32,000 bases of DNA from Candidatus Electrothrix yaqonensis (GCA_047651235.1 CP178758.1:480001-512000), one strand, 5' to 3'; numbered from the stretch's first letter, positions 1,117 to 28,757 are shown. A program made the numbers and translations. Notes: generated from the sequence alone by a model not told the origin.

Positions 1117-1201
1117 TAGATATTAAGATATTGAAATGACCGTATTAAACGCAGCAGCATTTTATTCACAATCTCGGAGCCGCCTGCCGGAGACGGAACA
1201 G

Positions 1202-1852: not shown

Positions 1853-1881
1853 TTGACAGAAGCCTGTAATTTTTGTATGTG
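1853..1881 (+). promoter_or_regulatory. candidate sigma-70 promoter of the atp operon
   Basis: TTGACA (1853-1858), 17 nt spacer, TATGTG (1876-1881), about 75 nt upstream of the atpF' start. Pattern evidence only. Confidence 0.3.
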
Positions 1882-1957
1882 TCTTATCTTTGCCCGTGTC
1901 GTTCTTCTTCTCCAGTTCATCAAATCATTATTTTTCAGAGTTATCAGGAGTTGTTAT

Positions 1958-2389
1958 ATGATTTCGATCGATATTACGGTGTTCATTCATATTATTAATA
2001 TGGTCGTGCTGATGGTCGTTCTGAACAAAATTCTCTATAAGCCTGTCCTTGAAATTATGGACAAGCGGCAGGAAAAACTGGATGCTCTGGGCAGTGACGT
2101 TGAACAGTTCGAGCGCAGTACCAAGGATCGGCAGGCGGAAGTGGAAAGAAGAACACGGCAGGCTGGGGCCCGGGCGAAAGAGGTGCTGGATGCTGCCAGA
2201 GCAGAGGCAGAACGGGCAGGTGCTGAACAGATTACTGTTGTCCGCCGGGAAGCTGACAGCGAAAAAGCAAAAGAGCTGGCCGGGCTGGAGGCTCAGCTTG
2301 ATGATGTGCGGAAAGAACTGCTGGACAGCACCGCAGTGTTTGCTCAGGAGATGGCGGCAAAGATACTTGGAAGGAGTCTGGAGGCATGA
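1958..2389 (+). CDS. atpF2: F0F1 ATP synthase subunit b' (b-family, short form)
   Basis: MISIDITVFIHIINMVVLMVVLNKILYKPVLEIMDKRQEKL is a single N-terminal TM followed by a long charged coiled coil, typical of b/b' subunits. CAGGAG lies 7 nt upstream of ATG 1958. The stop overlaps the next start (ATGA). Confidence 0.85.
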   Translation: MISIDITVFIHIINMVVLMVVLNKILYKPVLEIMDKRQEKLDALGSDVEQFERSTKDRQAEVERRTRQAGARAKEVLDAARAEAERAGAEQITVVRREADSEKAKELAGLEAQLDDVRKELLDSTAVFAQEMAAKILGRSLEA

Positions 2390-3189
2390 AATTACACAAA
2401 ATGAAACGTATTGTTCCTGCCCTGCTCGTTGTCGGCTTATGCGGCGGGATATTCGGGACCGCCTTTGCTGCGGGACACGGCGGGTACGAAGAAGCAGAGC
2501 ATCCTGCTGCTGCAGAACACGCTGTTCAGGCTGTTGAACAGGAACAGCAGGGGCACCAGCAAGTCGTTAACCCGGCTGCCGGAGAGCCTGATGCCGGACA
2601 TATCGGGCACAGTGCAGTTGCTGCGCAGGGAACAGATCATAATGCTGAACATGCTGCTGCCGGACACGGAGAGGAGCACGGCGGACATAACGCCCCCATG
2701 CTGACCGCAGAAAAACTGAAGGATCTTTTCTGGCGGGCAATAAATTTTATCGCCCTTGTGTTTCTGCTGGTCAAATTTCTCGGTAAACCTGTGACCGCCA
2801 GTCTGGGCGGACGGCGCCGGGAAATTCAGGAGGAGCTGGACGCTATGGAGGAGCAGCGCGACGCAGCAGAACGTTCATATAAAGAATTTACCGGACGGCT
2901 CGCCGGGATGCAGCAGGAAGCAGAGGAGATCGTCGCCAAAGCCAGGGCAATGGCTGAGGACGAAAAGGCCAGAATCCTTGCCGAGGCCGAGGCGGCAGCC
3001 AAAGACATCAGGCGGCAGGCGGAAGCTGCTGTACAGGGAGCCTTTGCCGATGTAAAAACGAGACTGCAGGCCGAAGTGGCGGAACAGGCCGTGGCCATGG
3101 CTGAGGAGCTGATCGTCAGGAATATGACTCCGGAGGATCAGGTGGCGATCACAGAACAGTTTCTTGAACGAGTGAGTGCGGTACAGTGA
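2386..3189 (+). CDS. atpF: F0F1 ATP synthase subunit b with about 105-aa N-terminal signal-like plus His-rich extension
   Basis: The C-terminal 160 aa is a canonical b subunit (LFWRAINFIALVFLLVKFLGKPV TM, then an RREIQEELD... coiled coil). The start overlaps the atpF' stop and the stop overlaps the GTG start of atpH. Confidence 0.9.
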   Translation: MKLHKMKRIVPALLVVGLCGGIFGTAFAAGHGGYEEAEHPAAAEHAVQAVEQEQQGHQQVVNPAAGEPDAGHIGHSAVAAQGTDHNAEHAAAGHGEEHGGHNAPMLTAEKLKDLFWRAINFIALVFLLVKFLGKPVTASLGGRRREIQEELDAMEEQRDAAERSYKEFTGRLAGMQQEAEEIVAKARAMAEDEKARILAEAEAAAKDIRRQAEAAVQGAFADVKTRLQAEVAEQAVAMAEELIVRNMTPEDQVAITEQFLERVSAVQ

Positions 3190-3731
3190 AACAGACAATT
3201 TTAGCAAAGCGATATGCCAGAGCGATCTTTGCGCTCGGCACAGAAAACGGAAAAACTGAAGCCTATGCGGAAACGCTGCACGCGCTTGCCGATATCTTTG
3301 ATGATCCTGCTCTTGAGGTGGTGGATGCGTTGACTAATCCGCTGTATCCGCTTGAGGTCAGAAAAAACGTCATGACCAAAATCGCTCAGGCGGTCGGGGC
3401 TGATGCCCTGATGACTGCATTCCTCAACCTGCTGGTGGAGCGCAGACGGGTTGACGTGATGTGCGAGATCGCGGTGCAGATGCGGGAGATGCTTGACCGT
3501 CAGGAAAATATCAGCCACGGTTCGGTCACTTCGGCAGTGGACCTGGACAGCGGGCTGCTTGCAAAAGTTCAGACAACACTTGAAAATATCACGGGAAACA
3601 AGGTCATTCTTGCAACACGGGTGGATCCCTCCATTATCGGCGGCGTTGTTGCCAGGGTCGGAGATCTGGTGTTGGACGGAAGTATACGAACACAACTTAA
3701 TGGATTAAAAGAATCTATCAAGGGGAGATAA
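3186..3731 (+). CDS. atpH: F0F1 ATP synthase subunit delta (OSCP)
   Basis: The N-terminus [13 protein letters not shown] and C-terminus [25 protein letters not shown] are hallmark delta-subunit motifs. The GTG start overlaps the atpF stop (GTGA). Confidence 0.95.
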
Positions 3732-3738
3732 TAGTCAG

Positions 3739-5262
3739 ATGCAGATCAAAGCCTCAGAAATCAGCAAGATCATAAAAGATCAGATTGCTGGTTATGAAAA
3801 TGTAGCAGACCTGAAAGAAACCGGAACCGTGCTGTCCGTGGGTGACGGTATTGCCCGTGTATATGGTGTTGAGAATTGTCAGGCCATGGAGCTGCTTGAA
3901 TTCCCCGGCGGCATCATGGGCCTTGCCCTGAATTTGGAAGAGGACAACGTCGGTGTTGCGGTTATGGGCGATGTCCGCTACATCAAGGAAGGGGATATCG
4001 TCAAGCGGACCGGCAAGATTGCCGAAGTTCCGGTCGGACCGGAGCTGGAAGGCCGGGTTGTTGACGGTATCGGTCAGCCCATTGACGGCAAGGGGCCGCT
4101 CGGTGCCAAGGAAACCCGGAAAATGGAGGTACTGGCTCCCGGGGTTATCGCCCGGAAAGGTGTGCATGAGCCTTGCTACACCGGCTATAAGGCTGTCGAT
4201 GCCATGACCCCGGTGGGCCGCGGTCAGCGCGAGCTGGTGATCGGCGACCGCCAGATCGGCAAGACGGCTCTGTGCGTGGATGCGATTATCGCTCAGAAGA
4301 ATACCGAGATCCACTGTATCTACGTGGCCACCGGCCAGAAAAAATCCACGGTTGCTCTGGTGGTTGAGGCCCTGCGCAAGCACGGAGCAATGGAGTACAC
4401 CACCGTAGTTGCGGCCTGTGCCTCTGATCCTGCCCCGATGCAGTATGTCTCCGCTATGGTAGGCTGTGCAATAGCCGAGTACTGGCGGGACAGCGGCAAA
4501 CATGCCCTGATTATTTACGATGATCTCTCCAAGCAGGCTGTGGCCTACCGTGAGCTCTCTCTCCTGCTCAGGCGCCCGCCGGGCCGCGAAGCCTATCCGG
4601 GTGACATCTTCTTCAACCACTCCCGTCTGCTGGAGCGGGCCGCCAAAGTTAACGATGAGCTGGGTTCCGGTTCCATGACTGCCCTGCCGATCATCGAGAC
4701 CCAGGCCGGTGACGTTTCCGCCTTTATCCCCACCAATGTTATCTCCATCACCGACGGTCAGGTGTTTCTGGAGCCGAGCCTGTTCTTTGCCGGTGTCCGC
4801 CCGGCCATCAACGTGGGTATTTCCGTATCCCGCGTCGGTGGTGCCGCCCAGGTCAAGGCCATGAAGCAGGTGGCCGGTACCCTGCGTCTCGACTTGGCCC
4901 AGTACCGTGAGCTGGCCGCCTTTGCCGGGTTCGGTTCTGATCTTGACGCAGCTACCCAGGCCCAGCTGACTCGCGGCGAGCGGCTGGTTGAAATCCTGAA
5001 GCAGCCCCAGTATCAGCCCCTGCCTATGGAAAAACAGGTGGTGATTATTTTTGCCGGAACCAAGGGCTTTCTGGATGCGCTGCCGGTTGATATGCTTGCT
5101 GAATATGAGCAGGAGCTGTACAGCTATATTGAGGCCAATGAGCCGTCGATTTTCAGCGAACTGCAGGAGAAAGAAGCGATCTCCGATGAGCTGGACCAGA
5201 AAATCAGAAAAACGCTGACCTCTTTCGGCGACGCGTTTAAAGCGACCAAGGGTCTGAACTAA
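3739..5262 (+). CDS. atpA: F0F1 ATP synthase subunit alpha
   Basis: 507 aa with Walker A GDRQIGKT, plus [29 protein letters not shown] and ITDGQVFLE motifs. Confidence 0.98.
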
Positions 5263-5315
5263 AAGGCTGAACTGAAAGGACGTGAAGTAAGCTCGAACAG
5301 CAGGGGACTGATTAC

Positions 5316-6188
5316 ATGCCCGGATTAAAGGATGTTAAGAATAAAATAGAAGGCGTCTCCAAGACCTCGCAGATTACCAAGGCGATGAATATGGTTGCCT
5401 CGGCCAAACTGCGGGGAGCGCAGGAGCGGATGGAATCTTTCCGGCCCTATGCGGAGAAGTTTGTCGAGGCCATGCAGGAGGTGTCCGGCGCAATGTCCGG
5501 CAGCAGCCAGCCGCTGATGGAGGCCCGTGATGTACGGACAGTGGAGATCATTGTTATCACCTCGGACCGCGGCCTCTGCGGCAGTTTCAATGCCAATATC
5601 GTGGCCAGGGCGCAGAAGCTCATGGATCAATACGAGGCTGAGGGAAAGAAGGTCACTCTGGTTACGGTGGGCAACAAGGCTGCCCAGGCCTTTAAACGCT
5701 CCGGGAAAATCCGGAAGTCGTATAAGGATATCATGGGTTCTTTCCAGATGTTCAACGCACGGGCCATCTCGCAGAATGTCAGCCGTAATTTTCTGCAGGA
5801 AGAAGCAGATAAAGTGCATCTGGTGTATGCCCGCTTTCTCTCTATGGCCAAACAGCAGCCGACTGAGCAGACCCTGCTGCCTATAGCACCTCCTGAACAG
5901 GAAGAGACAGAAAAAAAAGGCGTACCGGTTGAATATATCTATGAGCCGGATCCGGTGCAGATCATGGAAAACCTTCTCCCTCTGCATCTGAATGTCCAGG
6001 TCTATCGTGCCATGATCGAGGTCGGAGCTGGTGAGCAGGCAGCCAGGATGGCTGCTATGGATAATGCGACCAATGCCTGCGGGGATATTATCAAAGAGTT
6101 GACACAACTGTATAACAAGGCTCGCCAGGCGGCTATTACCGGCGACCTGATGGATATCGTCGGTGGTGCTGAGGCACTGAAGGGCTGA
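5316..6188 (+). CDS. atpG: F0F1 ATP synthase subunit gamma
   Basis: N-terminus IKNKIEGVSKTSQITKAMNMVASAKLR and C-terminus ARQAAITGDLMDIVGGAEAL are gamma-subunit signatures. Confidence 0.97.
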   Translation: MPGLKDVKNKIEGVSKTSQITKAMNMVASAKLRGAQERMESFRPYAEKFVEAMQEVSGAMSGSSQPLMEARDVRTVEIIVITSDRGLCGSFNANIVARAQKLMDQYEAEGKKVTLVTVGNKAAQAFKRSGKIRKSYKDIMGSFQMFNARAISQNVSRNFLQEEADKVHLVYARFLSMAKQQPTEQTLLPIAPPEQEETEKKGVPVEYIYEPDPVQIMENLLPLHLNVQVYRAMIEVGAGEQAARMAAMDNATNACGDIIKELTQLYNKARQAAITGDLMDIVGGAEALKG

Positions 6189-6196
6189 AAGAATAG

Positions 6197-7660
<1,464 letters not shown>

Positions 7661-12270: not shown

Positions 12271-13150
12271 CTGCCTGGTTTGTTTTATGCGCCAAGCCCG
12301 GTCTATCGGCCTGCTGACCACGGATAATCCGGCATATCAGCGGCAGCTGCTTGATACCACAGGCCGTTTTATCGAACAGATGGATGAAAATCTGTCACCG
12401 CCGGAAAATGCTGCGCCGCTTTATCAGCTTTTTGCCGGAGTACTGGGAACGGATGACCCGTTTGCCCGGATCAAACAGGAGAGCACGGCCTTTGCCCTGT
12501 CCCTGAAAGAGGAGCTGAAACAGCGGATTTGTGCTGCCGATGATCCGCTGCGGGCCGCGATCCGGGTGGCAATCGGCGGCAATATTATTGATTACGGTGC
12601 CCTGCACAGCTTTGATGCGGCAGCCACCATGCAGCAATGTTTTGACCAGGAATTTGTCGTGGATGATTATCCGGCCCTGCTGGCTGCCTTGGAGAAATCA
12701 GAACCGGAAGTGCTGTATCTCTGCGACAACTGCGGCGAAACCGTTTTTGACGGCCTGCTGATTGAACAGCTGCAGGTACGCGGCTGCCGGGTCACGACTG
12801 CAGTACGGGAATTGCCCATTATCAACGATGCTACCCTGGAAGACGCCCGCGCTGCCGGATTGGATAAACTCTGTCCGGTGATCAGCAGCGGCAGCGATTG
12901 TCCCGGTACTCCGCTTGCCCGCTGCAATGAGGGGTTCCTGGAACGCTTCCGCTCAGCCGACCTGATCATCAGCAAGGGGATGGGCAATTTTGAAACCCTG
13001 TCCGAGGAACCGGGGCCGATCTATTTTCTTTTTACAGTCAAATGCACGCAGGTTGCCCGGCATCTCACCAAGCGGCAGCAGCTTGCTCCGGGTACCCTGA
13101 CTGGAGCAGGAGAAATGGTGCTGCTGCGCCAGAAGCTGCCGTCGTCCTGA
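12254..13150 (+). CDS. DUF89 (ARMT1-like, damage-control phosphatase) family protein
   Basis: N-terminus LDCLVCFMRQA, central LCDNCGETVFDGLLIEQL, C-terminus IISKGMGNFETL are the DUF89 metal-site motifs. ATG 12254 overlaps the methyltransferase 3' end by 17 nt. Confidence 0.75.
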   Translation: MRTTLDCLVCFMRQARSIGLLTTDNPAYQRQLLDTTGRFIEQMDENLSPPENAAPLYQLFAGVLGTDDPFARIKQESTAFALSLKEELKQRICAADDPLRAAIRVAIGGNIIDYGALHSFDAAATMQQCFDQEFVVDDYPALLAALEKSEPEVLYLCDNCGETVFDGLLIEQLQVRGCRVTTAVRELPIINDATLEDARAAGLDKLCPVISSGSDCPGTPLARCNEGFLERFRSADLIISKGMGNFETLSEEPGPIYFLFTVKCTQVARHLTKRQQLAPGTLTGAGEMVLLRQKLPSS

Positions 13151-13253
13151 TCGGCAGTATTTTTTTTCATCTTTATCAAATTCTTATTTCACCACATAAA
13201 TGTTCGGCAGCGTCATGCCGGACGGGCATCAGGGTGGCTGGGTCTCGAACCAC

Positions 13254-13315
13254 TTGCTCTCTGAAGAGAATCCGTTATAATCTCTGCCCGTACTATTTTG
13301 TGATATATATTGTGA
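13254..13315 (+). promoter_or_regulatory. candidate sigma-70 promoter plus direct-repeat operator upstream of the GltD-like gene
   Basis: TTGCTC (13254-13259), 16 nt spacer, perfect TATAAT (13276-13281). Downstream lies TTGTGA-TATATA-TTGTGA (13298-13315), inside the predicted leader. Confidence 0.4.
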
Positions 13316-13347
13316 CAGATAAACCAACAGAGTTTGCAGGAGGAACA

Positions 13348-14775
13348 ATGAAATCGGCAGAACGAATGGCTATTCCCCGTCAGCACCCGCAGGAGCTCGA
13401 CCCGACTGAACGGATAAAAAACTTCAAGGAAGTAACTGCGGGCTATGACGAGGAAACAGCACTGCTCGAAGCTGAACGCTGTCTGCAGTGCAAAAAACCG
13501 TCCTGTATACAGGGCTGCCCGATCCGCAACAATATCCCCGGCTTTATTGCCCTGATCCGGGATAAGAAATTTGAGGAGGCCTACTGGAAGGTGCGGGAGA
13601 CCAGCACCATGCCCTCGGTCTGCTCCCGTGTCTGTCCCCATGAATTTCAGTGTGAAGGCAGCTGTATCCGGGGCAGAAAAGGTGACCCCGTGGCCATCGG
13701 CATGCTGGAACGCTATCTCACGGACTGGATGGTGGCCAACGGTAAATCCATGAATAAGGAATGCGCGGTGCCCAACGGCCGTAAGGTCGCCATTGTCGGG
13801 TCCGGCCCTGCCGGGATAACTGCTGCCTATATTCTCGCGCATGAGGGCTATAAATGCACCATCTACGAGGCCCTGCCCGTGTTCGGCGGCATGCTCTCCG
13901 TGGGCATTCCCCATTACCGCCTGCCCCGCGATATCATCGGCGCGGAACTGGCCTCGCTGAAAAGCTGCGGCGTGGAAATCAAATACGGTATAACCATCGG
14001 CAAGGATAAAACCCTGCAGCAGCTCCGGGATGAAGGATATGAAGCCGTTTTTATGGGGGTCGGGGCGCATGAAGGCCGCAGGCTGAGGATTGAGGGCGAG
14101 GAAACCACGAAGGGCGTCCTGCACGGCGTGGATTACCTGCGCCGGGTGCTGACTGGTGAGACCGTGGATATCGGCAAAAAGGTCGTAGTGGTCGGCGGCG
14201 GCAACGTGGCCATTGACGTGGCCCGGACCGCCCTGCGGACAGGTTCGGACGAGGTCTTCATCCTCTATCGGCGCACCAGAGAGGAGATGCCCGCTTCCGG
14301 CGCCGAGATCCATCATCTGGAAGAAGAAGGCGTGCGGATGGAATTCCTTGCTTCCCCGGTAAAAATTCATGCCGATGAAAACGAAAACAATCAGCTCACC
14401 GGGGTCGAGTGCGTCAGGATGGAACTCGGAGAGCCGGATGATTCCGGTCGGCGCCGCCCGGTGGTGCAGGAGGGCTCAAACTTTATCATCAAGGCTGACT
14501 CCATCATCCCGGCCATCAGCCAGCAGGTGCAGCATGATGCCGACAAGGGCGCTGATCTGCAGCTGGAATCCTGGGGAACCTATGCGGTCAATCCTCGTAC
14601 TTTGCAGACCTCAGTGCCTTGGATTTTTGCCGGAGGCGATGATGTGCTCGGACCGCAGACTGCAGCTAAAGCTGTGTATCAGGGCAAGGTTGCTGCGGAA
14701 TCCATGCAGCGCTTCATGGAAGGCAAGGATCTTGAGGAAGGCCGCAAACTGTCCTGCTATATGGTGGACTGGTAA
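13348..14775 (+). CDS. GltD-family NAD(P)H-dependent oxidoreductase (glutamate synthase small-subunit / NfnB / SudA-like)
   Basis: N-terminal Fe-S Cys motifs (CLQCKKPSCIQGCP, CSRVCPHEFQCEGSC) and two Rossmann motifs (VAIVGSGPAGITAA, VVVVGGGNVAIDVA). AGGAGGAACA sits directly upstream of ATG 13348. The upstream part of the track ORF (13042) is not coding-like. Confidence 0.85.
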   Translation: MKSAERMAIPRQHPQELDPTERIKNFKEVTAGYDEETALLEAERCLQCKKPSCIQGCPIRNNIPGFIALIRDKKFEEAYWKVRETSTMPSVCSRVCPHEFQCEGSCIRGRKGDPVAIGMLERYLTDWMVANGKSMNKECAVPNGRKVAIVGSGPAGITAAYILAHEGYKCTIYEALPVFGGMLSVGIPHYRLPRDIIGAELASLKSCGVEIKYGITIGKDKTLQQLRDEGYEAVFMGVGAHEGRRLRIEGEETTKGVLHGVDYLRRVLTGETVDIGKKVVVVGGGNVAIDVARTALRTGSDEVFILYRRTREEMPASGAEIHHLEEEGVRMEFLASPVKIHADENENNQLTGVECVRMELGEPDDSGRRRPVVQEGSNFIIKADSIIPAISQQVQHDADKGADLQLESWGTYAVNPRTLQTSVPWIFAGGDDVLGPQTAAKAVYQGKVAAESMQRFMEGKDLEEGRKLSCYMVDW

Positions 14776-14849: not shown

Positions 14850-14927
14850 TGGTCGGGGCGGTAGGATTCGAACCTACGACCTCCTGCTCCCAAGGCAGGC
14901 ACGCTAACCAGGCTGCGCTACGCCCCG
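14850..14927 (-). tRNA. tRNA-Pro (anticodon UGG), CCA encoded
   Basis: The reverse complement folds as CGGGGCG-TA-GCGC-AGCCTGGTTA-GCGT-G-CCTGC-CTTGGGA-GCAGG-AGGTC-GTAGG-TTCGAAT-CCTAC-CGCCCCG-A-CCA (78 nt). This is a full cloverleaf with TGG in the anticodon loop. Confidence 0.95.
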
Positions 14928-15363: not shown

Positions 15364-18300
15364 ATGAACAAACCATTTTTCGCCGGGCGCACGGCAGACC
15401 TTGATCAGCTCACAGCATTGGCAGAGCAGGCCTTTGCCGGAAAGGCGCAGATCGCTTTTATCACCGGTGAGGCAGGCATGGGCAAGAGTGCTCTGGCCTG
15501 CGAACTGCTGCGCCGTGTGCAGGAAAAGCAGGAGAATGCGGTTGCCGCCTGCGGTAAATGCACGGTGCGGGAGGCCAGTTATCTCCCCTTCCGCACTATA
15601 CTGGAACAGCTCAGCGGCAGCGAAAAGCAGGTGCAGGAATCCGGCGGCAAGTTAAGGAAAGTGGCAGAATTTACGGTCGAAACGGTCTGGACGGTCGGCC
15701 CTGAACTCATCGGTATTTTCGGCACCCCGATCAAGGCCCTGCAGAAGGTGGTCGAAAAGCAGGGACTGCGGAGCGGAACAACCGCGCCAGCTGTCACCAC
15801 GCCGCAGGATCTGAATCCGCAGCAGATTTACGGCTGGTACACCAAGATCATGCAGGAAGTTTCGGCCAAATTTCCTCTGCTGCTCTTTCTTGATGATCTC
15901 CACTGGGCCGATGAATCTTCTCTGAACCTGCTCTTCCACCTCGGCCGCGAGCTGGAAAACCGCAGAATCTTCCTGATCGCCACCTTCCGTCCCCATGAAA
16001 TTTCTGAGCGGCTTGCTGAAATAAAGAACCGACTTGAGCGGTATGGTGCACGGGAATTCTCCCTCGATGTTTCAACAGAAGGAGAAAAGGATGTCGTTAA
16101 AATTCGGGACTTTGTCCACTCCTTTCTGACGGAAAAATACGGAACAAATTTTTCCGGCCAGTTCGAGCAGCTTTTGGCGGAACGCACCCGGGGAAATGCC
16201 CTTTTTCTTGCCGAGCTGCTGAAAAATATGGAGGAAAAAGGGCAGCTCACCTGCGAGAAGCAGAATGGGATGGTCGTCCGCTGTCATCTTGCGGAAGGGC
16301 TTGACGAACATGTCGCTTTGCCTGGGAAAATCGAGGCGGTCCTGCGGGAGCGGGTTGACCGGCTGGACAAGGATTTGCAGGAACCGCTGACCGTCGCTAG
16401 TGTGCAGGGCGATGATTTTCTTGTCCAGGTGGTTGCCAAAATTCAGCAGACTGATTGCTGGGAATTGATCGATACCCTGAGCAAAGAGCTGATGAACCGG
16501 CATCAGCTGATTTATGACCGGGACGGAAAGGATCTGGCCAACGGCAATCGGGTGCATGTCTTTTCCTTTCGGCATAATCTGCTGCGGCAATACGTGTACG
16601 ACAGGATTCCGAAAGCAAAAAAGGAGCATCTTCATGCCGAAACCGGCGCGCGTCTGGAGGAGCTGCATCAGCCGGATGCCGATGAGATTGCCGGAGTGCT
16701 GGCTGTTCACTTCCATCACGGGCATGTGCTGCCCAAAGCTGTTGCGTATTCGCTGAAAGCGGCGGAGAACGCCAATATCCGGTACGGCACTGCCGAGGCC
16801 GTGCGTTGCGCGGGCATGGGGCTGGAGGCTCTGGAACAGGGGAAACGCAATTTTTCTCTGCAGGAATATCTGGAAAATAAAATCAGGCTGGTGATTGAGC
16901 TAGCAAAGGCGGAGGAATATGGTGGTGATCCGCAGGAGAAGAAAGATCATATTCAGTTTGGGATAAAATTACTTGAAGAGCATCTGCCATTGGTGGAACA
17001 GGTTGCGGAAAAAGTGCAGGCGGATTTTTATACCGAGTTTGGTAGGCTGTATTATAGAAAAGGAGGAAAACAGCAGGAAGCAAAAACTTGGTTTGAAAAG
17101 GCTTTGCTTCTGTATGAAAGGAATGAAGACCAAAAGCAAGCTGCTGAATTATGCTATCTTCTTGGAGACATCTATCAGTTCATTTTGTCTTCTTCAGGCA
17201 ACCAGACTCCTCTTGAACAGAGTATAGCTGTTTTACAGAAAGGACTCAGCATTGCCGAACAGATACAAGATATGCCTTTGCAGTCAAGAATATTGAGTCG
17301 ATTAACTTGGCGGTTAGGAAAGAAAAATATTTCAACAAGCAAAATGTATGCGCAGCAGGCATTGACTCTGTCAAGAGCCTCTAAAAATCATTATGCGGAA
17401 ACACGAGCCCTTGCTGCAATGGCATATGTTTGCAGAAGACGTACCCAACAAAAAACTTCAGTAATATATTTGAAAAAAGCGTTGGATATAGCAAGAAAAA
17501 CGGGAAACTCAATAACTGAATCAGAGATATTGAATGATATCGGTTTTGATTGCAGTGACTATATGTCCATAAAAAATGAAGGGCAACGTGCATACAAAGA
17601 AAGCCTTGCTGTAAAAGAAAAAATAGGAACAAAAAAGATATTTTCTTTAAATAACTTAGGGTGGAGTTTTGCAAAGCAGGGAAAATGGAACAAGGCAAAA
17701 TCGTGCCTGATGGAGGCAATTGAACAATCCAGTGAACGAGAAACTAGTCAGTCCCACTATCAATATAAGATAGGAAGAGTGTATATGTTTCAAGAGAAAT
17801 ACGAACAGGCTGAACCTATATTCTTGCACCGAATTAAAATTATTGAAAAATACAAGTTAAGCTATCCAGTAGTATTTATATGCACAGCTCAAAACTATGC
17901 AAAACTAGACAAAAAGATCGAAAGCAAAAAATTACTGACGATCTCTTTTGAAAAATACAAGGCCGTAAGCGGTCCTAACACGAAAGCATCATATCTCCAC
18001 GAATACGCAGAAACCTGCCGCCTTCTCAAAGAATACGAAACAGCCCGATCCGCCTGCAAAAAATCTCTTACATGGCTCCTCAACAACGCCGAAGATCCGG
18101 ATGACTACCAGCCTGTCGCCGAGGCCCGCCTGATCATGGGCAAAATCCTTGTGGACATGCAGTCCTTCCGGGAAGCTCTCCCCTACCTCGAAAAAGCAAA
18201 AGCCGCCTTTGCCATCGGCAGACACTACGCCCTCGGCGAAACCATGCTCTATCTCGGCAAAGCCCATCTGGAACTGAACCACGGCCAAAAGGGAAAAGAG

Positions 18301-18393
18301 CTGCTCATCCGCGCTCTGACGGAATTCCAGCGTCTTGGATTGCGCAAAAAAGAGGCGGAAGCGAGAAGGCTGCTGGGGCTGCGGAGGCAATAA
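15364..18393 (+). CDS. STAND-type P-loop NTPase (AAA_16-like) with C-terminal TPR-like array; no recognisable effector domain
   Basis: FAGRTADLDQL...ITGEAGMGKSALACELL (Walker A) and PLLLFLDDLHWADESSLNLL (Walker B) give a MalT/AAA_16-type layout. The C-terminal half consists of TPR-like repeats (e.g. EAKTWFEKALLLYERNED, KAKSCLMEAIEQS, ALPYLEKAKAAFAIGRHYALGETMLYLGKAH). 1009 aa. Confidence 0.85.
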   Translation: MNKPFFAGRTADLDQLTALAEQAFAGKAQIAFITGEAGMGKSALACELLRRVQEKQENAVAACGKCTVREASYLPFRTILEQLSGSEKQVQESGGKLRKVAEFTVETVWTVGPELIGIFGTPIKALQKVVEKQGLRSGTTAPAVTTPQDLNPQQIYGWYTKIMQEVSAKFPLLLFLDDLHWADESSLNLLFHLGRELENRRIFLIATFRPHEISERLAEIKNRLERYGAREFSLDVSTEGEKDVVKIRDFVHSFLTEKYGTNFSGQFEQLLAERTRGNALFLAELLKNMEEKGQLTCEKQNGMVVRCHLAEGLDEHVALPGKIEAVLRERVDRLDKDLQEPLTVASVQGDDFLVQVVAKIQQTDCWELIDTLSKELMNRHQLIYDRDGKDLANGNRVHVFSFRHNLLRQYVYDRIPKAKKEHLHAETGARLEELHQPDADEIAGVLAVHFHHGHVLPKAVAYSLKAAENANIRYGTAEAVRCAGMGLEALEQGKRNFSLQEYLENKIRLVIELAKAEEYGGDPQEKKDHIQFGIKLLEEHLPLVEQVAEKVQADFYTEFGRLYYRKGGKQQEAKTWFEKALLLYERNEDQKQAAELCYLLGDIYQFILSSSGNQTPLEQSIAVLQKGLSIAEQIQDMPLQSRILSRLTWRLGKKNISTSKMYAQQALTLSRASKNHYAETRALAAMAYVCRRRTQQKTSVIYLKKALDIARKTGNSITESEILNDIGFDCSDYMSIKNEGQRAYKESLAVKEKIGTKKIFSLNNLGWSFAKQGKWNKAKSCLMEAIEQSSERETSQSHYQYKIGRVYMFQEKYEQAEPIFLHRIKIIEKYKLSYPVVFICTAQNYAKLDKKIESKKLLTISFEKYKAVSGPNTKASYLHEYAETCRLLKEYETARSACKKSLTWLLNNAEDPDDYQPVAEARLIMGKILVDMQSFREALPYLEKAKAAFAIGRHYALGETMLYLGKAHLELNHGQKGKELLIRALTEFQRLGLRKKEAEARRLLGLRRQ

Positions 18394-20935: not shown

Positions 20936-20980
20936 AAACTAAACGACTCACCGACTTTCAGTCGGTGAGTCGTTTAGTTT
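20936..20980. terminator. perfect 20-bp inverted repeat, likely (bidirectional) terminator downstream of the DUF169 gene
   Basis: AAACTAAACGACTCACCGAC-TTTCA-GTCGGTGAGTCGTTTAGTTT. On the minus strand it is followed by TTTTAC, on the plus strand by CTGAC. It lies 83 nt past the DUF169 stop. Confidence 0.55.
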
Positions 20981-21062: not shown

Positions 21063-21887
21063 CTATGGAAACAGTTTATACGGAAAGCCGTTCTGAGACT
21101 CATCTATTCCCTCGGCCATAATCTTAAAATCATGATACGGCATTCCCAAAGCCAGACGGTCTTCTTCCCATCCTCCGAGAGCCCTGGCTCCCAAACAGAA
21201 AAAGGAAGCATTCATCTTCTGTTCAAGAAACGGGTAGGCGGTCACATCAGCGCAGACTCCACGGATGCCGATCGTGTTGAATTCAACCCGTTCTCCGTTC
21301 ATAAAGGCATAGCCCTGAACCATCCGCATTGCCTGCTTGGGAGTAACCCCCATTACAACCACGTCAGGTTCATAGTCGGTGCAGCTGGACGGAAAAGCCG
21401 CCACTGCGTCCATCGCTTCTTTGCCTATCCCCGTCATTCCGGAAACCGCTTTCAATGAAGCACCCAAGGTTTTATAGCGTCCGCAGTCTTCCTGGCCGAA
21501 CAGAGCAAACTCCATATGTCCGCTTGCCCTGCATGCATAAACATATCCGTCGGTAAAATCTTTGGGGCTGGCGGCGTCTTTCATCAGGGAAGTATATTTA
21601 CGACTTCCCTCCAACGGCTCAGGATCATCTGGATCAACAAGTCCTAAAGCTATTGCCGCAGCAGGACACCCTATATTTTTTTTCGTAATAACAATAAAAT
21701 CTCCGTCAGATGCCAGTTTTACTGCACCGCACCAAGGAGTACTGATGTCCTCTGCATTGCTGTCTTTCTCCTTCGGAATATCAGAACCCTTAGGAAAGAA
21801 TTTAACCCCTACCGCTTTTATTGCCGGTTTTTCCGTTCCGTTTTTCAACGAAAAAATAACTTTGTTTTCCAAATCCTGAAAGCTCAT
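21063..21887 (-). CDS. DUF169 (COG2043) family protein
   Basis: 274 aa starting MSFQDLENK, with AAAGGAGAAAAT upstream. Conserved-looking Cys/Gly blocks (NIGCPAAAIALGL, SFFCLGARALGGWEEDRLALGMPYHDF) resemble DUF169. The family call is from memory only. Confidence 0.5.
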   Translation of the reverse strand: MSFQDLENKVIFSLKNGTEKPAIKAVGVKFFPKGSDIPKEKDSNAEDISTPWCGAVKLASDGDFIVITKKNIGCPAAAIALGLVDPDDPEPLEGSRKYTSLMKDAASPKDFTDGYVYACRASGHMEFALFGQEDCGRYKTLGASLKAVSGMTGIGKEAMDAVAAFPSSCTDYEPDVVVMGVTPKQAMRMVQGYAFMNGERVEFNTIGIRGVCADVTAYPFLEQKMNASFFCLGARALGGWEEDRLALGMPYHDFKIMAEGIDESQNGFPYKLFP

Positions 21888-22059
21888 ATTTTCTCCTTTT
21901 CTTCCTGAGAAGCAGCTAAAAATCCATACGCTCGATTTTTGGATTCTCAAAGTTTCTTCTCAGCAGATAATGACTGAATACGTAATTCCTGTTACCGTTT
22001 TTTCTGCCTCTGTTATTTTTCCCGCATTACCTCCTTTTTGATTCAAGTTACCAGGTAAC

Positions 22060-24834
22060 TCAGACCTTCTGAATCCTGCTCTTGATATATTTCAGCGGCG
22101 GGGTGCCGGACCATGTACAGGCCAGGGCAGGCGGCAGCAGAACATTGGTGTTGAAGCCGCCGCATTGCGGATACTTCGGATCACCTTCTATCCCGTATTT
22201 GCTGCCGAACCCGCCAGCTGCAGCCAGCACACCCTGCCGGATATCCCAAGTTACCTTGGCGACAGCCGTGACTTCTCCCCAAGGCGAGGCAACCAGTACT
22301 TCGTCAGCGTCAGCGATACCGAGCTGCCGGGCATCCTGATAGTTAATCCAGACCGGATTGCTGCCGCATTGCTTCATCAGGGCAGAATTCCAAGCAGTCG
22401 AGGTGTGTTCGTGCTCAAGCACCCGGAAATAGCCGCTGATCATGGGAAAGTCTTCATCCGGCTGCAAATCGGGCCAGTCCGCATAGGGCGGAATATAGTC
22501 GGGCAGGGCATTCAGCCCGGCCTTTTCCGCTGCCGGGTTGCTGAAATTATATTTTCCGGTCACGCTGTTGCCAGAAGAACCGTATCCAGCAGGCGGATTC
22601 ATTGAACCCCATTTTGTGTATTTATAAAACTCCTGGGGATCTGTAATATGATAGCCGGTCTTCCGCAGCTCCTCCAAAGTAACCGGCTGGTTGCGGAGCT
22701 GGTTTTCCATGTACTCGTCCTCACTCTGCCAGGGAAAATATTCACCGTAGCCGAGGCGTTGTGCCAATCCGGTAAAGATGGCAACCACGGAACGAGAATC
22801 ATACATAGGCGCAATGGCCTTTTGTCCCAGCGAGATAAAGGACTCATACATCCAGTCCGCTGTTACCCGGCTCTGCTCCAGATAGGTGCAGTCCGGCAGG
22901 ATCACGTCGCAGAGTTCCGTGGTGTTGCTCATGTAGCAGTCAATGGCGCAGGAAAACTCTAACTGCTCCACAGCCCGGCGGACTGACGGTTCGGAGCTGT
23001 CCGACATGACCGGGTTGCCGAAATAGCAGAGCATGGCCTTGAGCCGTCCGGCCAGGACATCCTCTTCAAAATGGGCCGGAATCCAGCCGCTCCAGAGCTT
23101 GGCTTTATTGAGTTTGAATTTCTCCGCATTATTGGGCGGCTTGGGCTGGTCATCAACCCAGGGCGAAGCCAGCTTGCGTTTGCTGATCAGCGCAGGGCCG
23201 CCGGGCGCATCAAAGCAGGCCATAAGGGCGTTCAGGGCCTGGATCGCCTGGGTAGCATGGACGGCATTGGGCACCTGGGCAACCCCGGTCCAGGACATCA
23301 CCCCGGCAGCAGGAGCGGCAGCGGCAAACTCACGGGCCAGCCGTTCAATGGTCGCGGCAGGTACCCCGCAGATGGCCTCGGCCCATTGCGGCGTCCGGGC
23401 GGCTCCGTCCTCTTCGCCCAGCAGCCGTTTTTTGAACTCGGCAAAACCGTAGCACCACTCCGTAACAAAATTCGTGTCGTACAGATTTTCGTTCACCAGC
23501 ACATAGGTCATCGCCAGGGCCATTGCCCCGTCCGTGCCGGGCAGGATCGGCACCCATTCCGTGGCCAGACCGGCAGTTTCGCAGCGCCGGGGATCAACCA
23601 CCACCAGCTTGGCACCTTTTTTGACGGCCTGTTTAAGCAGCCCGACCTTGCGCTGTCCGGCAGAGGTGGCCAGTTCGTTCATGCCGAAGAGAAGGATGAA
23701 CTCGGAACGGGCATAATCAATCCAGGGTCGCTTTTCGCTGAAACAGTGCTCGTTGGCCATCCGGTTGGCATTATCGCACATCTGGCGGTGGGTGCCCTTG
23801 TTCGGGGTGCCGTAGGCCGCCATCACCGCTTCATGGCACCAGCTGTTGAAGTCATTGCCCCGGTGAAATGCTACGGTTTTGGGATCAAAGCTCTGTAGCT
23901 TGGTCGCGGTCAGATCAAGGGCCTCGTCCCAGGACGCCTTTCTGAAACGGCCGTTTTCCCGGATCAGCGGCGTTTTCAGGCGATAGGCGGAATAGGTGTT
24001 TTTATGGGCATTGGCCCCCTTGATGCAGAGCCGCCCGCCGCCTTTGGGGTCACCGGCCAACCCTTTGCAGCCTGTGATGATCCCGTCGCGGACTGTGACT
24101 TCCTGGCCGCAGAGTCCCAGACAGATATAGCAGTGGGTTTTAACCCTCCTGTCCGCCTCCGGTTCAACCGCGCCGTGGGTCAGGGTGACAGGTTTCCGGT
24201 CAAGTTCAAGCAGGGCAACAGCCTGAGCCAGCTGTTCGATCTCCGCCTCCTCAACGGTTCCCGCAAGTACGGCTTTGGTCAGCTCGGCCAGTCCCTGATA
24301 GAAATCAGTCTGCGCAGCTGTGCTGAGCACGTCGCAGAAAGTTGCTGCCCAACTCAGATGCTTGCTAAAAAAATCTGTCTGCTGCTCCTCTGTCTCTTCC
24401 CGTCCGGCCAGATACGCCAGAAACTCCAGTTCCACCGCAATATGGTCGTCCAGATCAGGCCAGGCCGGATTTTTATGTACCCCGGCAGCAGCATATGCCT
24501 CCCGCACTGCAAATAGCGGTTGCTGCATGACCAGCGGTTCGCCGGTGACATGGCAGGAGGCATAGGGGAAGACCGGATTTTTCCCTGCATTGAGAAAAAG
24601 ATCAGCATATTCATAGCGCAGTTCGTTATAGACTTCTGCCGCTGAACCTGTCTGCAGGCCTCTGCTCATTTTGGTGCAGCCGGAGGATAAATCTTCCGTC
24701 GGAGCGTTTTCTCCCAAGCTGGTGAGATGCTCAAGGAAGGAAGGGGTCCGCATCTGTTCAATAAATGCCTGCGGAATTTCATCCCGATAGAAGAAAGAAA
24801 GAAAATTGTATATTATTGCTCGTGCATTACTCAT
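22060..24834 (-). CDS. Mo/W-bis-PGD (DMSO reductase superfamily, Psr/Phs-like) oxidoreductase catalytic subunit with fused N-terminal TorD/DmsD-like chaperone domain
   Basis: Residues 1 to about 195 carry TorD-family motifs (YEYADLFLNAG, NPVFPYASCH, PDLDDHIAVELEFLAYLAG). Residues 235-270 are CYICLGLCG...(27)...CIKG, a CX2CX3CX27C 4Fe-4S motif. Then come the molybdopterin domains (THRQMCDNANRMA candidate Cys ligand; VVDPRRCETA) and a C-terminal molydop-binding barrel (VWINYQDARQLGIADADEVLVASPWGEV). There is no twin-arginine signal. Confidence 0.85.
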   Translation of the reverse strand: MSNARAIIYNFLSFFYRDEIPQAFIEQMRTPSFLEHLTSLGENAPTEDLSSGCTKMSRGLQTGSAAEVYNELRYEYADLFLNAGKNPVFPYASCHVTGEPLVMQQPLFAVREAYAAAGVHKNPAWPDLDDHIAVELEFLAYLAGREETEEQQTDFFSKHLSWAATFCDVLSTAAQTDFYQGLAELTKAVLAGTVEEAEIEQLAQAVALLELDRKPVTLTHGAVEPEADRRVKTHCYICLGLCGQEVTVRDGIITGCKGLAGDPKGGGRLCIKGANAHKNTYSAYRLKTPLIRENGRFRKASWDEALDLTATKLQSFDPKTVAFHRGNDFNSWCHEAVMAAYGTPNKGTHRQMCDNANRMANEHCFSEKRPWIDYARSEFILLFGMNELATSAGQRKVGLLKQAVKKGAKLVVVDPRRCETAGLATEWVPILPGTDGAMALAMTYVLVNENLYDTNFVTEWCYGFAEFKKRLLGEEDGAARTPQWAEAICGVPAATIERLAREFAAAAPAAGVMSWTGVAQVPNAVHATQAIQALNALMACFDAPGGPALISKRKLASPWVDDQPKPPNNAEKFKLNKAKLWSGWIPAHFEEDVLAGRLKAMLCYFGNPVMSDSSEPSVRRAVEQLEFSCAIDCYMSNTTELCDVILPDCTYLEQSRVTADWMYESFISLGQKAIAPMYDSRSVVAIFTGLAQRLGYGEYFPWQSEDEYMENQLRNQPVTLEELRKTGYHITDPQEFYKYTKWGSMNPPAGYGSSGNSVTGKYNFSNPAAEKAGLNALPDYIPPYADWPDLQPDEDFPMISGYFRVLEHEHTSTAWNSALMKQCGSNPVWINYQDARQLGIADADEVLVASPWGEVTAVAKVTWDIRQGVLAAAGGFGSKYGIEGDPKYPQCGGFNTNVLLPPALACTWSGTPPLKYIKSRIQKV

Positions 24835-25108
24835 TATGCTGTCCTGTATCGTGTTTATTCTCCGGATCTATGAACAGAGAGATAAGAAGATGCCCTTTGT
24901 TATCTTTGATTATCATTTTTAAAAAATTTAAAAAATCAGTATCATACAAAAAAAATCATAGTATATTACGCTCGGCAGTTCATTGTCAACTGATTTTCTG
25001 TAAGGAAAACGGGATGAGCGGCCTGCAGGCCATTGCAGAGCATTCCGGCAGGAGAAATCCGGCGGATGCTCCTGAACATGTTTTTTATTCAATATTATGG
25101 AGGAAATC

Positions 25109-26293
25109 ATGGAGAACAGAACTTGGAGCAGATGGTGTCTTCTGCTTCTGACAGCAATCATGCTGCTGAACAGCCCTCCCCTGCTCATGAGCCAGCCGAC
25201 ACAGGCCCCTGCTGCAGAGCTGGATTTGCCCGGCAAGCTGGGTGAGGTTGTTGCCAAGACGCCAAGGGGAACAGAACCCGGGCATATCAATATGGAGGCG
25301 GAAAAAGGTTTTGCCGGAATCCCCGGTGCACCGAAGATCAACTATGTTGCCGCCTTTTTCTGGGCGATCTGGGTGGGCTGGATTTTCACTACAGTCGGGG
25401 CCTTCGGCGGGATAATGGCCGGGGTAGGGCATTTGACGATTTTCGGTATTGGTGCTTATGCTGTCACGTTTAAGGGAACCAACCCTGAGCTGAACAAGCT
25501 GCTCACCGACACCATCCGGACCTCCAACCAGTTCCTGGTCGGGCTGGCTGCCCTGATCTCCACCTACAGTTTTTTCCGGATGAAGCGGCTGGTGGTGCCC
25601 TTAGGGCTGGCAATGGGCCTCGGCAGTGTGGCCGGCGGCCTGCTCATTCCCTGGCTGACTGCCGGAAAAATTCAGCTCAGTCAGTATATCGGCTGGTTCG
25701 GTGTCGCTGTCCTGGTGATCGGCGGGTTTCTCTTCTACGGGACCACGGAACGCAGCCGGGCCTCAAAAAGCAAGGCCAATGAGGCTGCAAAGAATTTCCA
25801 GAAGGCAATGAAGGAAGGTGCCTCGGACACCCAGGGGGTGACGGTCTCATCGTTCGGCCTAACCAAGACTGCTTTCTCCTTTTATGGCACAGAATTCACC
25901 TTTAACCCGCTCCTTGCGGTGCTCGGCGGCGTGGTCATCGCCTCCATAGCCTCGTTTCTGGGGATCGGCGGCGGATTTCTCTATGTTCCTTTCCTGACCA
26001 GCATCATCGGCCTGCCCATGTACATTGTTGCAGGCACCTCGGCTCTGGCTGTGCTGCTGAGTATGGTGAGCAGTATTTTTTCCTTTGTGGTTGTCGGAGG
26101 AACCTATATCAGCTGGGAGCTGGTGGGCATTGAAATGGCCGGAGTTGCTGTGGGCGCGTTCATCGGGCCGAAAACCCAGAAGTACATCCCGGAAAAATGG
26201 CTGAAATGGCTCTTTATCGTGCTGGCCGTGTATGTGGGACTCCGGTATTTCAGCAAGGGCTTCTTCGGCCAGAGCTGGCTGCCGCCGTTCTGA
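25109..26293 (+). CDS. TSUP / TauE-SafE family anion (sulfite/sulfonate-type) permease
   Basis: Two TauE-like halves (FGGIMAGVGHLTIFGI...; LGIGGGFLYVPFLTSIIGLPMYIVAGTSALAVLL). There is an N-terminal signal/anchor plus an extension of about 60 aa. GGAGGAAATC lies upstream of ATG 25109; an alternative ATG is at 25097. Confidence 0.8.
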   Translation: MENRTWSRWCLLLLTAIMLLNSPPLLMSQPTQAPAAELDLPGKLGEVVAKTPRGTEPGHINMEAEKGFAGIPGAPKINYVAAFFWAIWVGWIFTTVGAFGGIMAGVGHLTIFGIGAYAVTFKGTNPELNKLLTDTIRTSNQFLVGLAALISTYSFFRMKRLVVPLGLAMGLGSVAGGLLIPWLTAGKIQLSQYIGWFGVAVLVIGGFLFYGTTERSRASKSKANEAAKNFQKAMKEGASDTQGVTVSSFGLTKTAFSFYGTEFTFNPLLAVLGGVVIASIASFLGIGGGFLYVPFLTSIIGLPMYIVAGTSALAVLLSMVSSIFSFVVVGGTYISWELVGIEMAGVAVGAFIGPKTQKYIPEKWLKWLFIVLAVYVGLRYFSKGFFGQSWLPPF

Positions 26294-27734: not shown

Positions 27735-28757
27735 CTATTGGTAAATGTACCCTAATGGCCGATGGTCAATAACATCCGCCGGTGTCCTTTCAGACTCTCC
27801 GGTAACATCGGGAATAGGAGTATCATCTGGCAGAAGCCGTGATATATATCCTTCCCGATCACCCACCCATGGCCACATTGCATCATTCAATTTGTGGCCT
27901 TCATCTTCACCTGAATTTGGTCCAGGATAATAAGCAATGCCTTGATGACCATTCTCCTGCCATTCTGCCCATAGCCGGTCAATATTGCAGTGATGAAGAA
28001 AGAAAATAAGATCATTTGGCGAGGCATAGCGATTCCCCATATGTCCGCCTACCCAGCCGTGACCAAAGTTATGCATTCTTCGACCTGCTTCCAATCGGTT
28101 TCGGAATCCTCTCGGCTGGCTGTCCAAGGTTCCGCTTCCGCTTATCGGATCAACCTCAAGAACGGTACCTGAATCTTCATATACAGGCCTGCTTAAAGTT
28201 CGTCGAACATCTTCAGGGATCGCAAGACTACGAGAGTTTAGCCTACGCAAGAGAGTGGTACCAAGACCACCATCAAGAGACGATCTGATCCGCCAACCTT
28301 CCAATCCTTCAGGCCACCAATCGGGTCGTGGAAAGGAGTTTTCTCCAGTACCTGGTGCGTCATAGCCAAAATACCCTGAGATGATTAAACCGTCCCTAGC
28401 TCCAAGGAATTCATCAACGAACAGCCTCTCCAGGGTGCCGGTATGATCAGTCCAGTCCCAGTATGGTAAACCAATAGACGAGCCGTGCTCTATCAATGCC
28501 TTTTCAAAGCGTAGCAGAAATTCACGGTGCCATGGTAGAAATCCTGGTCCGCCATGCCCCATATTTACATTGCTTCCATCAGGCACTGTCACTGTAAGAC
28601 ATCCCAAGTGAATAGCCTCGAACTGATCAAAGACTGAAATCTGTTTATCCACTGGGGCGTTTGGGTTGGCAACAGTTGCTTTCATTCTTATTACTGCGGC
28701 CAATAAAGAATCACGTTCATCATTTGTTAGGCATGTTACGCTTTTTCTGATAGACAT
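27735..28757 (-). CDS. tyrosinase (type-3 dicopper oxidase)
   Basis: CuA site: GHGGPGFLPWHREFLLRFEKAL. CuB site: MHNFGHGWVGGHMG...SPNDLIFFLHHCNIDRLWAEWQ. Both are near-identical in pattern to Streptomyces MelC2 motifs. GGAGGA lies 5 nt upstream of the ATG. No signal peptide. Confidence 0.9.
   Translation of the reverse strand: MSIRKSVTCLTNDERDSLLAAVIRMKATVANPNAPVDKQISVFDQFEAIHLGCLTVTVPDGSNVNMGHGGPGFLPWHREFLLRFEKALIEHGSSIGLPYWDWTDHTGTLERLFVDEFLGARDGLIISGYFGYDAPGTGENSFPRPDWWPEGLEGWRIRSSLDGGLGTTLLRRLNSRSLAIPEDVRRTLSRPVYEDSGTVLEVDPISGSGTLDSQPRGFRNRLEAGRRMHNFGHGWVGGHMGNRYASPNDLIFFLHHCNIDRLWAEWQENGHQGIAYYPGPNSGEDEGHKLNDAMWPWVGDREGYISRLLPDDTPIPDVTGESERTPADVIDHRPLGYIYQ

Follow-up and report, generated by a model that had tools for sequence, protein, structure and literature searches.

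A TorD/DmsD/NarJ-family chaperone domain fused to the N-terminus of a PsrA/PhsA-like molybdopterin oxidoreductase in a cable bacterium and other Desulfobacterota

The chaperones NarJ, DmsD and TorD, representatives of the redox enzyme maturation proteins (REMPs), possess two client-binding sites, one for the leader or N-terminal tail and the other for the catalytic core of the molybdoenzyme, the core site being required for cofactor insertion (PMC10609526). The only precedent found in open-access papers and bioRxiv for a REMP domain inside a molybdenum (Mo) enzyme polypeptide is NarX of Mycobacterium tuberculosis, a deletion-born mosaic of NarG, NarJ and NarI with a minimal role in nitrate reduction and no identified function (bioRxiv 10.64898/2026.01.05.697752). 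As for cable bacteria, a 2026 inventory of their sulfur genes covers only the periplasmic Phs/PsrABC complex (PMC13047784). Analysis of a 32,000-nt stretch of the genome of Candidatus Electrothrix yaqonensis (GCA_047651235.1 CP178758.1:480001-512000, hereafter the window) revealed a gene whose deduced product of 924 amino acid residues (aa) combines both partners, namely an N-terminal REMP domain, a short tether and a complete catalytic subunit of the Mo- or tungsten (W)-bis(pyranopterin guanine dinucleotide) (bisPGD) type. Coordinates of the gene, its domains and the neighbouring features are collected in Table 1.

The open reading frame (ORF) of 924 codons starts with ATG and contains no internal stops; an AGGA Shine-Dalgarno-like sequence lies 5' of the start codon, and the region further upstream is AT-rich. 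A "molybdopterin-dependent oxidoreductase" of the cable bacterium Candidatus Electrothrix sp. YB6 matches the deduced protein with 100% identity. With Pfam hits judged against gathering cut-offs and NCBIfam hits against equivalog cut-offs, four Pfam domains were identified, Nitrate_red_del (aa 48-168), Molybdop_Fe4S4 (aa 230-282), Molybdopterin (aa 285-692) and Molydop_binding (aa 803-916), all of them above their cut-offs. Together with the presence of every motif quoted in the original prediction, which had been made from the sequence of the window, this bears out the proposed fusion of a TorD-like domain to the N-terminus of a complete Mo-bisPGD subunit. Residue conservation was assessed in an alignment of 35 diverse fused homologues, in which the cysteines of the FS0 [4Fe-4S] cluster motif (positions 235, 238, 242 and 270) and Cys353 of the THRQMCDN motif (aa 348-355) are invariant. 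In the alignment with polysulfide reductase PsrA of Thermus thermophilus (2vpw), Cys353 pairs with the Mo ligand Cys173. The same protein is the closest solved relative of the catalytic part (E 2.5e-64), and Foldseek matched the predicted fold of this part to PsrA, Nap, Fdh and Arr at probability 1.0. Its domains, its FS0 motif and the predicted Cys ligand at the conserved position place the catalytic part in the bisPGD (dimethyl sulfoxide reductase) superfamily.

The N-terminal domain is equally well delimited. PF02613 matched with an E-value of 4e-26 (92 bits vs a cut-off of 22.2) and the NCBIfam TorD model covered aa 2-193 (E 1.6e-22), so that the TorD-family assignment of residues 1-195 was confirmed by profile searches. 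The signature blocks YEYADLFLNAG and FPYASCH correspond to aa 74-84 and 89-95, respectively, and DDHIAVELEFLAYL to aa 129-142, overlapping the family hallmark DLDDHIAVELEF (aa 127-138), which contains the DDH motif. The E/D-x-x-D-H motif of the REMP family is a hinge motif, and its histidine, His131, is invariant in the homologues, as are Tyr76, Phe80, Pro87, Pro90, Tyr91 and Trp162. Mean identity among homologues is 49% in the chaperone domain vs ~70% in the catalytic part, indicating that the former evolves faster. Modelled alone, residues 1-232 adopt the all-helical REMP fold with high confidence (predicted local distance difference test, pLDDT, 90.7; predicted template modelling score, pTM, 0.89), and the top eight PDB matches found by Foldseek are all REMPs (YcdY, DmsD-like 1s9u, DmsD and NarJ), with target-normalised template modelling (TM) scores of 0.47-0.69, comprising 0.62-0.69 for YcdY, 1s9u and NarJ and 0.47-0.51 for Escherichia coli DmsD. 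Shewanella TorD (1n1c) aligns to aa 3-212, while helix 196-207 and strand 218-220 hold pLDDT values of ~90 (~91 for the strand) in the N-terminal-only model; the chaperone fold would therefore extend to about aa 212 and be followed by a tether of about aa 213-229. The TorD-type domain of the original prediction thus stands, whereas its extent of ~195 aa and the linker of ~35 aa have to be revised to ~212 and ~17 aa, respectively. In the full-length AlphaFold2 model (pLDDT 78.6, pTM 0.76) the N-terminal domain exceeds a pLDDT of 90, and residues 221-230 reach 93 with the catalytic domain vs 74 without it. As the catalytic domain is needed for a confident prediction of these residues, an ordered connection to the FS0 side is predicted, and the models suggest a tether that is short and ordered, keeping the chaperone near the FS0 domain.

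The distribution of the fusion was traced in species-representative genomes, one genome per species, among which 189 loci encode a relative of the protein. The best 80 of these 189 genome assemblies and the window were combined into a survey of 81 loci. The four-domain architecture recurs in over 110 protein clusters, with identities as low as 51%. In 77 of the 81 loci a single alignment crosses the junction between chaperone and enzyme, and 69 harbour an ORF that runs without interruption over at least 900 codons; eight loci are cut by contig ends. Seventy-nine of the best 80 loci bear Desulfobacterota or uninformative names. The named carriers include Electrothrix, Electronema, Desulfocapsa, Desulfofustis glycolicus DSM 9705, Desulforhopalus vacuolatus DSM 9700 and Desulfopila, to which are added Desulfobacteraceae, Desulfohalobiaceae, Desulfatiglandales and a Desulfomonile metagenome-assembled genome. 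Judged from these sequence comparisons, the fusion is conserved in about 190 sulfur-cycling species, nearly all of them Desulfobacterota. Automatic annotations already give both COGs for some fusion members; the covalent arrangement of a REMP with a catalytic subunit is therefore visible in databases, and it is apparently undiscussed in the open-access papers and bioRxiv preprints searched. The chaperone family and the enzyme superfamily are both known, and together they appear to define an uncharacterised cytoplasmic clade of PsrA/PhsA-like proteins.

Two observations accompany this survey. The only fused homologue outside the Desulfobacterota in the top 80 (L087, JAIVXD010000333.1) resides on a 3.3-kb contig with 0.8x coverage binned as Anaerolineales, and probably reflects a binning error rather than lateral transfer. 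A separate family of REMP fusions (P0176, P0178 and P0246; 565-579 aa) consists of an N-terminal TorD-like domain, ~250 unassigned residues and a C-terminal Fer4_22 dicluster domain.

No RRxF/L-type motif of twin-arginine translocation (Tat) signals was detected by motif scan anywhere in the fusion protein, in line with the previously reported lack of RRxFLK, nor was any Tat motif present in the 35 aligned homologues, the RR pair at positions 229-230 not being conserved. A hydrophobic leader is likewise missing, with a peak 15-residue Kyte-Doolittle window of only 1.13 in the first 240 aa, and neither a cleavage motif nor a hydrophobic region was found in the fusion protein or the alignment. 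The absence of an adjacent ferredoxin-like or membrane-anchor gene, claimed earlier for this locus, holds as well: the window neighbours, DUF169 and TauE genes, include no PsrB/DmsB-like or NrfD-like gene according to Pfam, and no PsrB/PsrC-type gene adjoins the fusion in the window or in the ten loci of relatives whose neighbours were also annotated with Pfam. A gene for a Tat-signal partner was not found adjacent in any annotated locus.

In most relatives the fusion gene belongs to a conserved cluster, together with genes for a sigma54 activator of the NtrC type, a small membrane protein rich in histidine, a PAS kinase and a stand-alone receiver as well as for a GAF kinase and a TauE permease. 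The counts over the 81 loci are lower bounds, at least 3 kb of sequence being available on both flanks in 42 of them only. The receiver gene, whose product carries no output domain, abuts the fusion gene in 36/81 loci, the gene of a GAF-GAF-PAS histidine kinase does so in 28/81, and a PAS kinase (46/81), a small hypothetical protein (40/81) and TauE (34/81) are encoded within 5 kb. Both major clades have the NtrC-type sigma54 activator in the cluster. Upstream of the fusion gene, sigma54 -24/-12-like sites were found in 15 of 75 loci; for the operon-leading gene the corresponding figure is 18 of 40, vs a background of 4.7% in random windows. Gene order varies between clades and cluster membership persists, the module being kept across ~50% sequence divergence, which argues for a functional link among the cluster genes. 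TauE is the most persistent neighbour across clades. In cable bacteria the signalling genes are gone and TauE and/or rhodanese are kept: TauE lies beside the fusion in the window, Electrothrix GW3-4, Electronema PJ and nielsenii, with the divergent layout of the window recurring in Electrothrix GW3-4, and rhodanese is encoded directly downstream in two of their loci, those of E. laxa and Electronema sp. PJ. A further rhodanese gene occurs in Ca. Desulfaltia, two genes downstream of the fusion, and 7/81 loci contain PF12974 binding proteins near the fusion gene.

Several further features of the cluster were recorded. The small protein of 145-190 aa, without a Pfam match and always encoded 5' of the PAS histidine kinase of the cluster (L005:4586-5023; L034:7415-7903; L075:6442-6948), combines an N-terminus resembling a signal peptide with several hydrophobic helices and with conserved histidines (HGAPEG.YVHQ.AH ... 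GH ... DHL); it is absent from the window and may be a membrane metal- or haem-binding co-sensor. The linked TauE of many relatives comprises ~565 aa, with an N-terminal extension of ~260 aa lacking a Pfam match (L034:14550-16238; L075:7617-9323), and is paired with a conserved hypothetical protein of ~190-200 aa (L034:16335-16940; L075:6955-7530); the TauE of the window is shorter (398 aa) and has no such partner. In a subclade of Desulfobacteraceae the cluster extends to a second Mo-oxidoreductase, which is unfused, a ferredoxin of 170 aa and a GltD-like NAD(P)H oxidoreductase (L003:13174-17753; L006:12511-16850), a trio that may form a cytoplasmic NAD(P)H-linked molybdoenzyme. As a general partner of the fusion this trio was rejected, being present in 3/81 loci and having a Mo-enzyme 29% identical to the catalytic domain of the fusion; in the window a GltD-like gene is located at 13042-14775, ~7 kb from the fusion gene. 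Finally, a PPDK_N/PEP-utilizers protein (815-868 aa) and a dual-specificity phosphatase form a pair beside the cluster in three unrelated loci (L034:1968-5373; L005:13442-16850; L091:2961-6561).

The interpretation that we favour, with moderate confidence, is that of a soluble, cytoplasmic, single-subunit PsrA/PhsA-like Mo/W-bisPGD enzyme whose REMP domain acts in cis; both the cis action and the cytoplasmic location are inferred from sequence features. The REMP domain would occupy the N-terminal place where a Tat export leader normally sits and, after translation, would act on the tethered core, holding the apo-enzyme open and protected until the FS0 cluster and bis-molybdopterin guanine dinucleotide are inserted. 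Free TorD, DmsD and NarJ, which act in trans via their second, core-binding site, may serve as the model for such cis action, with the leader-binding site made obsolete and the core interaction made intramolecular. Lacking a leader that could be passed to the Tat machinery, the protein would not leave the cytoplasm. Given the short and ordered tether, the chaperone domain probably stays docked close to the FS0 domain, at the face used by PsrB in PsrABC, which would fit the absence of a PsrB/PsrC partner. Electrons would be delivered by a soluble carrier such as ferredoxin, and the linked TauE permease would transport a sulfur-anion substrate. The dedicated NtrC-type/sigma54 multi-kinase system would control expression in most Desulfobacterota; it has been lost in cable bacteria, the window likely relying on a sigma70-type promoter. 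The nature of the substrate can be proposed only tentatively: a sulfur anion, whether of the thiosulfate, the polysulfide/persulfide or the tetrathionate type, is a possible candidate in view of the PsrA/PhsA similarity, the TauE and rhodanese neighbours and the occasional PF12974 proteins, a family that provides the sensor domain of TtrS and ThsS, which sense tetrathionate and thiosulfate (PMC5408782).

Several observations weigh against parts of this interpretation. TauE and PF12974 are broad families, which weakens the substrate assignment. In NCBIfam, PhsA ranks first for the catalytic part with 298 bits vs an equivalog cut-off of 694, and the REMP domain equally falls below the equivalog cut-offs of TorD (80.5 vs 132 bits) and DmsD (45.5 vs 162 bits). 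The PsrA residues that we take to be His145 and Arg332 correspond, on our reading of the alignment, to the invariant Gly326 and the near-invariant Thr516 of the fusion; as they are not conserved, the chemistry may differ from polysulfide reduction. The full-length model superposes poorly on PsrA (TM 0.47/0.58, rmsd 14 A), which makes its catalytic part too unreliable for docking claims, and the predicted chaperone-core contact site and docking geometry derive from pLDDT comparisons. Moreover, a receiver-only protein and two kinases are tightly linked to the fusion in the operon, which could signify something beyond transcriptional control.

An alternative that we regard as unlikely is that the N-terminal domain is a permanent structural or regulatory domain, no longer a transient chaperone. 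Such a domain might cap the surface for the electron-transfer subunit, gate FS0 or the substrate funnel, or dock the receiver-only protein, and it would agree with the short ordered tether, the whole-chain pTM, the lack of an adjacent PsrB-like partner and the frequent abutment of the receiver-only gene. The REMP hallmark residues are, however, invariant in the 35 homologues, arguing for a kept ancestral chaperone surface, and cable bacteria hold the fusion without the receiver gene. In any case, a permanent domain overlaps with a REMP acting in cis rather than excluding it. The possibility that the molybdoprotein is a signalling input module, whose redox or substrate state is read by the PAS and GAF histidine kinases and passed on via the receiver-only protein, appears improbable. 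It draws on the conservation of the His-rich protein/PAS kinase/receiver/fusion/GAF kinase module despite its shuffled order and on the receiver lacking an output domain; yet the cluster contains an NtrC-type DNA-binding activator and sigma54 sites precede the operon, for which the simplest explanation is that the substrate induces expression, as it does in the Tor and Ttr systems. Besides, Electrothrix and Electronema keep the enzyme after the loss of all signalling genes, and all catalytic residues are strongly conserved. The more far-reaching proposal, that the fusion is the sensory core of an undescribed Desulfobacterota pathway in which the chaperone-derived domain is the interface to the receiver and the PAS/GAF kinases and converts cytoplasmic sulfur-anion or redox status into phosphorylation, the cable-bacterium enzyme being a stripped-down derivative, is a speculation of comparably low probability.

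Some signal-less Tat substrates are co-exported with a partner, a precedent that counts for export of the fusion enzyme, whether by hitch-hiking on a Tat-signal partner or after removal of the chaperone domain by proteolysis. Such export is nevertheless very improbable: although an extracellular location is predicted for the MOLY molybdoenzymes of related bacteria (PMC12998232), REMPs are cytoplasmic proteins (PMC10609526, PMC12998232), and the annotated loci and the protein itself offer neither an adjacent Tat-signal partner nor a cleavage motif or hydrophobic region. The weakest explanation, an artefact in which a missed stop or frameshift joins two adjacent genes, as the original prediction had cautioned, is refuted by the 77 junction-spanning alignments and 69 long ORFs, and metagenome contig L090, where a 226-aa TorD ORF overlaps a 720-aa catalytic ORF by 26 nt, is to be seen as a frameshifted exception, since its +1 frame still encodes the conserved tether and its catalytic ORF has a weak TTG start.

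The segment concerned (L090:7001-9818) is situated inside the same conserved cluster and represents either natural gene fission by frameshift or an assembly indel. Its TorD ORF (P0125) was the nearest apparently free TorD and was considered as a remnant of the ancestral two-gene state, but its junction is best taken as that of a frameshifted fusion and gives no evidence of a split ancestor; other short top matches were fusions truncated at contig ends or frameshifted.

Table 1. Features of the fusion gene and its surroundings in the window, with positions counted from the first nucleotide of the 32,000-nt stretch.
Feature	Coordinates	Strand	Evidence
Complete fusion gene, 924 aa (REMP domain, tether, Mo/W-bisPGD catalytic subunit)	22060..24834	-	ORF list + Pfam
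TorD/DmsD/NarJ-family (REMP) chaperone domain, aa 1-212	24199..24834	-	PF02613 + TorD alignment + model
Short tether, aa 213-229 (~17 aa)	24148..24198	-	35-homologue alignment + pLDDT
Conserved TLxEG segment, predicted beta-strand docked on chaperone domain	24172-24186	-	alignment + model
FS0 [4Fe-4S] domain	23989..24147	-	PF04879, 32.5 bits
FS0 cysteine motif C235-x2-C238-x3-C242-x27-C270	24025-24132	-	motif positions checked
Molybdopterin oxidoreductase domain, aa 285-692	22759..23982	-	PF00384, E 4e-35, 122 bits
Putative Mo/W ligand Cys353, codon TGC	23776-23778	-	alignment with PsrA 2vpw
Molybdopterin-dinucleotide-binding barrel (domain IV), aa 803-916	22087..22428	-	PF01568, E 2e-17, 63 bits
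Sigma70-type promoter-like site, TTGACA-18-TATACT, 11/12 matches, ~125 nt upstream of ATG	24960..24989	-	consensus scan
DUF169 gene	21063..21950	-	PF02596 E 2e-43
Intrinsic terminator-like hairpin, 20-bp stem, ends fusion-DUF169 unit	20937..20979	-	terminator scan
TauE/SafE-family anion permease, divergent from fusion gene	25097..26293	+	PF01925 E 2e-23

In the window, the fusion gene is followed by the DUF169 gene, the true start of which is probably the ATG at 21887, preceded by an AGGAGA ribosome-binding site. No terminator was found between the two genes, and they are likely co-transcribed, in this genome only: as a conserved partner DUF169 was rejected, being absent beside the fusion in the 80 other loci. 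The DUF169 (COG2043) protein has no solved relative and no NCBIfam match. A sigma54 promoter upstream of the fusion gene of the window was searched for and rejected, with no site at two or fewer mismatches and the sigma70-like site found instead; a molybdenum cofactor riboswitch or other RNA element in the 5' leader was likewise dismissed, with no Rfam elements detected. The window opens (1-7660, + strand) with the 3' part of rpoN, encoding sigma54, followed by an F-type ATP synthase operon, so that the organism does have sigma54 even though its fusion gene lacks a corresponding site. Other features of the window are a tRNA (14853-14927, - strand), a 1009-aa protein with AAA_16 ATPase and TPR regions (15364-18393, + strand), the C-terminal third of whose gene (17001-18000) falls in a GC trough of 37% vs ~52% window-wide, and a tyrosinase-domain (type-3 copper) protein (27735-28757, - strand) adjoining TPR proteins.

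Comparison with characterised systems sets the fusion apart from each of them. PsrA/PhsA (2vpw) is the best match of the catalytic part in Foldseek, with 28% identity, and shares with it the N-terminal FS0 cysteine motif, the position of the Cys Mo ligand and the four-domain bisPGD fold; unlike the fusion, which has neither a leader nor adjacent B/C genes, it is a periplasmic enzyme with a Tat leader and PsrB and PsrC partners, and its chaperone is separate or missing. The fusion thus departs from PhsA/PsrA in equivalog score, twin-arginine leader and B/C-subunit operon. TorD, DmsD, NarJ and YcdY share with the N-terminal domain PF02613 above cut-off, the same fold and the DH hallmark motif, but as free proteins of ~200 aa they work in trans and in most cases bind to a Tat leader, whereas the domain of the fusion is covalently attached to its presumed client. 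The best functional analogy for an N-terminal chaperone acting on a cytoplasmic enzyme is probably offered by NarG-NarJ, in which a non-exported Mo-bisPGD enzyme still needs a REMP and NarJ binds the N-terminal tail and the core of NarG (PMC10609526); here, however, NarJ is separate, and NarG, from another clade, has an Asp ligand and is partnered by NarH and NarI. The soluble, signal-less FS0 monomers FdhF and acetylene hydratase (2e7z) give significant sequence and fold matches, but have no fused chaperone and differ in active-site ligands or chemistry.

M. tuberculosis NarX likewise unites a PF02613 REMP domain and Mo-enzyme sequence in one natural polypeptide (bioRxiv 10.64898/2026.01.05.697752), and therefore the earlier statement that REMPs of characterised systems are separate proteins holds for TorD, DmsD and NarJ but has this one exception. 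In NarX the REMP domain is internal and the Mo-domain incomplete, whereas in the fusion the REMP domain is N-terminal to a complete, strongly conserved subunit. From the same phylum comes the MOLY cluster (MolyA, MolyB and MolyC) of sulfur-disproportionating Desulfobacterota, which combines a PsrA/PhsA-like enzyme with a chaperone resembling TorD/DmsD and has a proposed role with sulfur compounds (PMC9676032, PMC12998232). Identity with MOLY was considered and rejected, since its published descriptions set it apart as three separate genes, molyA, molyB and molyC, including a ferredoxin-like B subunit, with products predicted to be extracellular (PMC9676032, PMC12998232), whereas the fusion is one polypeptide without B subunit or signal. 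A natural REMP fusion is not described in the REMP evolution study, and the 2023 review of maturation uses "fusion" for engineered constructs only (PMC10609526). The second, core-binding site of these chaperones has never been seen structurally, small-angle X-ray scattering on TorD-apoTorA having been inconclusive (PMC10609526). As a natural 1:1 covalent chaperone-client protein present in cultured species (Desulforhopalus vacuolatus DSM 9700 and Desulfofustis glycolicus DSM 9705), the fusion offers a stable complex for cryo-electron microscopy or crystallography and would make the question of how REMPs engage the core of the apo-enzyme directly testable. It also marks a predicted cytoplasmic PsrA/PhsA-like clade, with its own sigma54/two-component regulon and permease, in sulfur-cycling Desulfobacterota including the cable bacteria.

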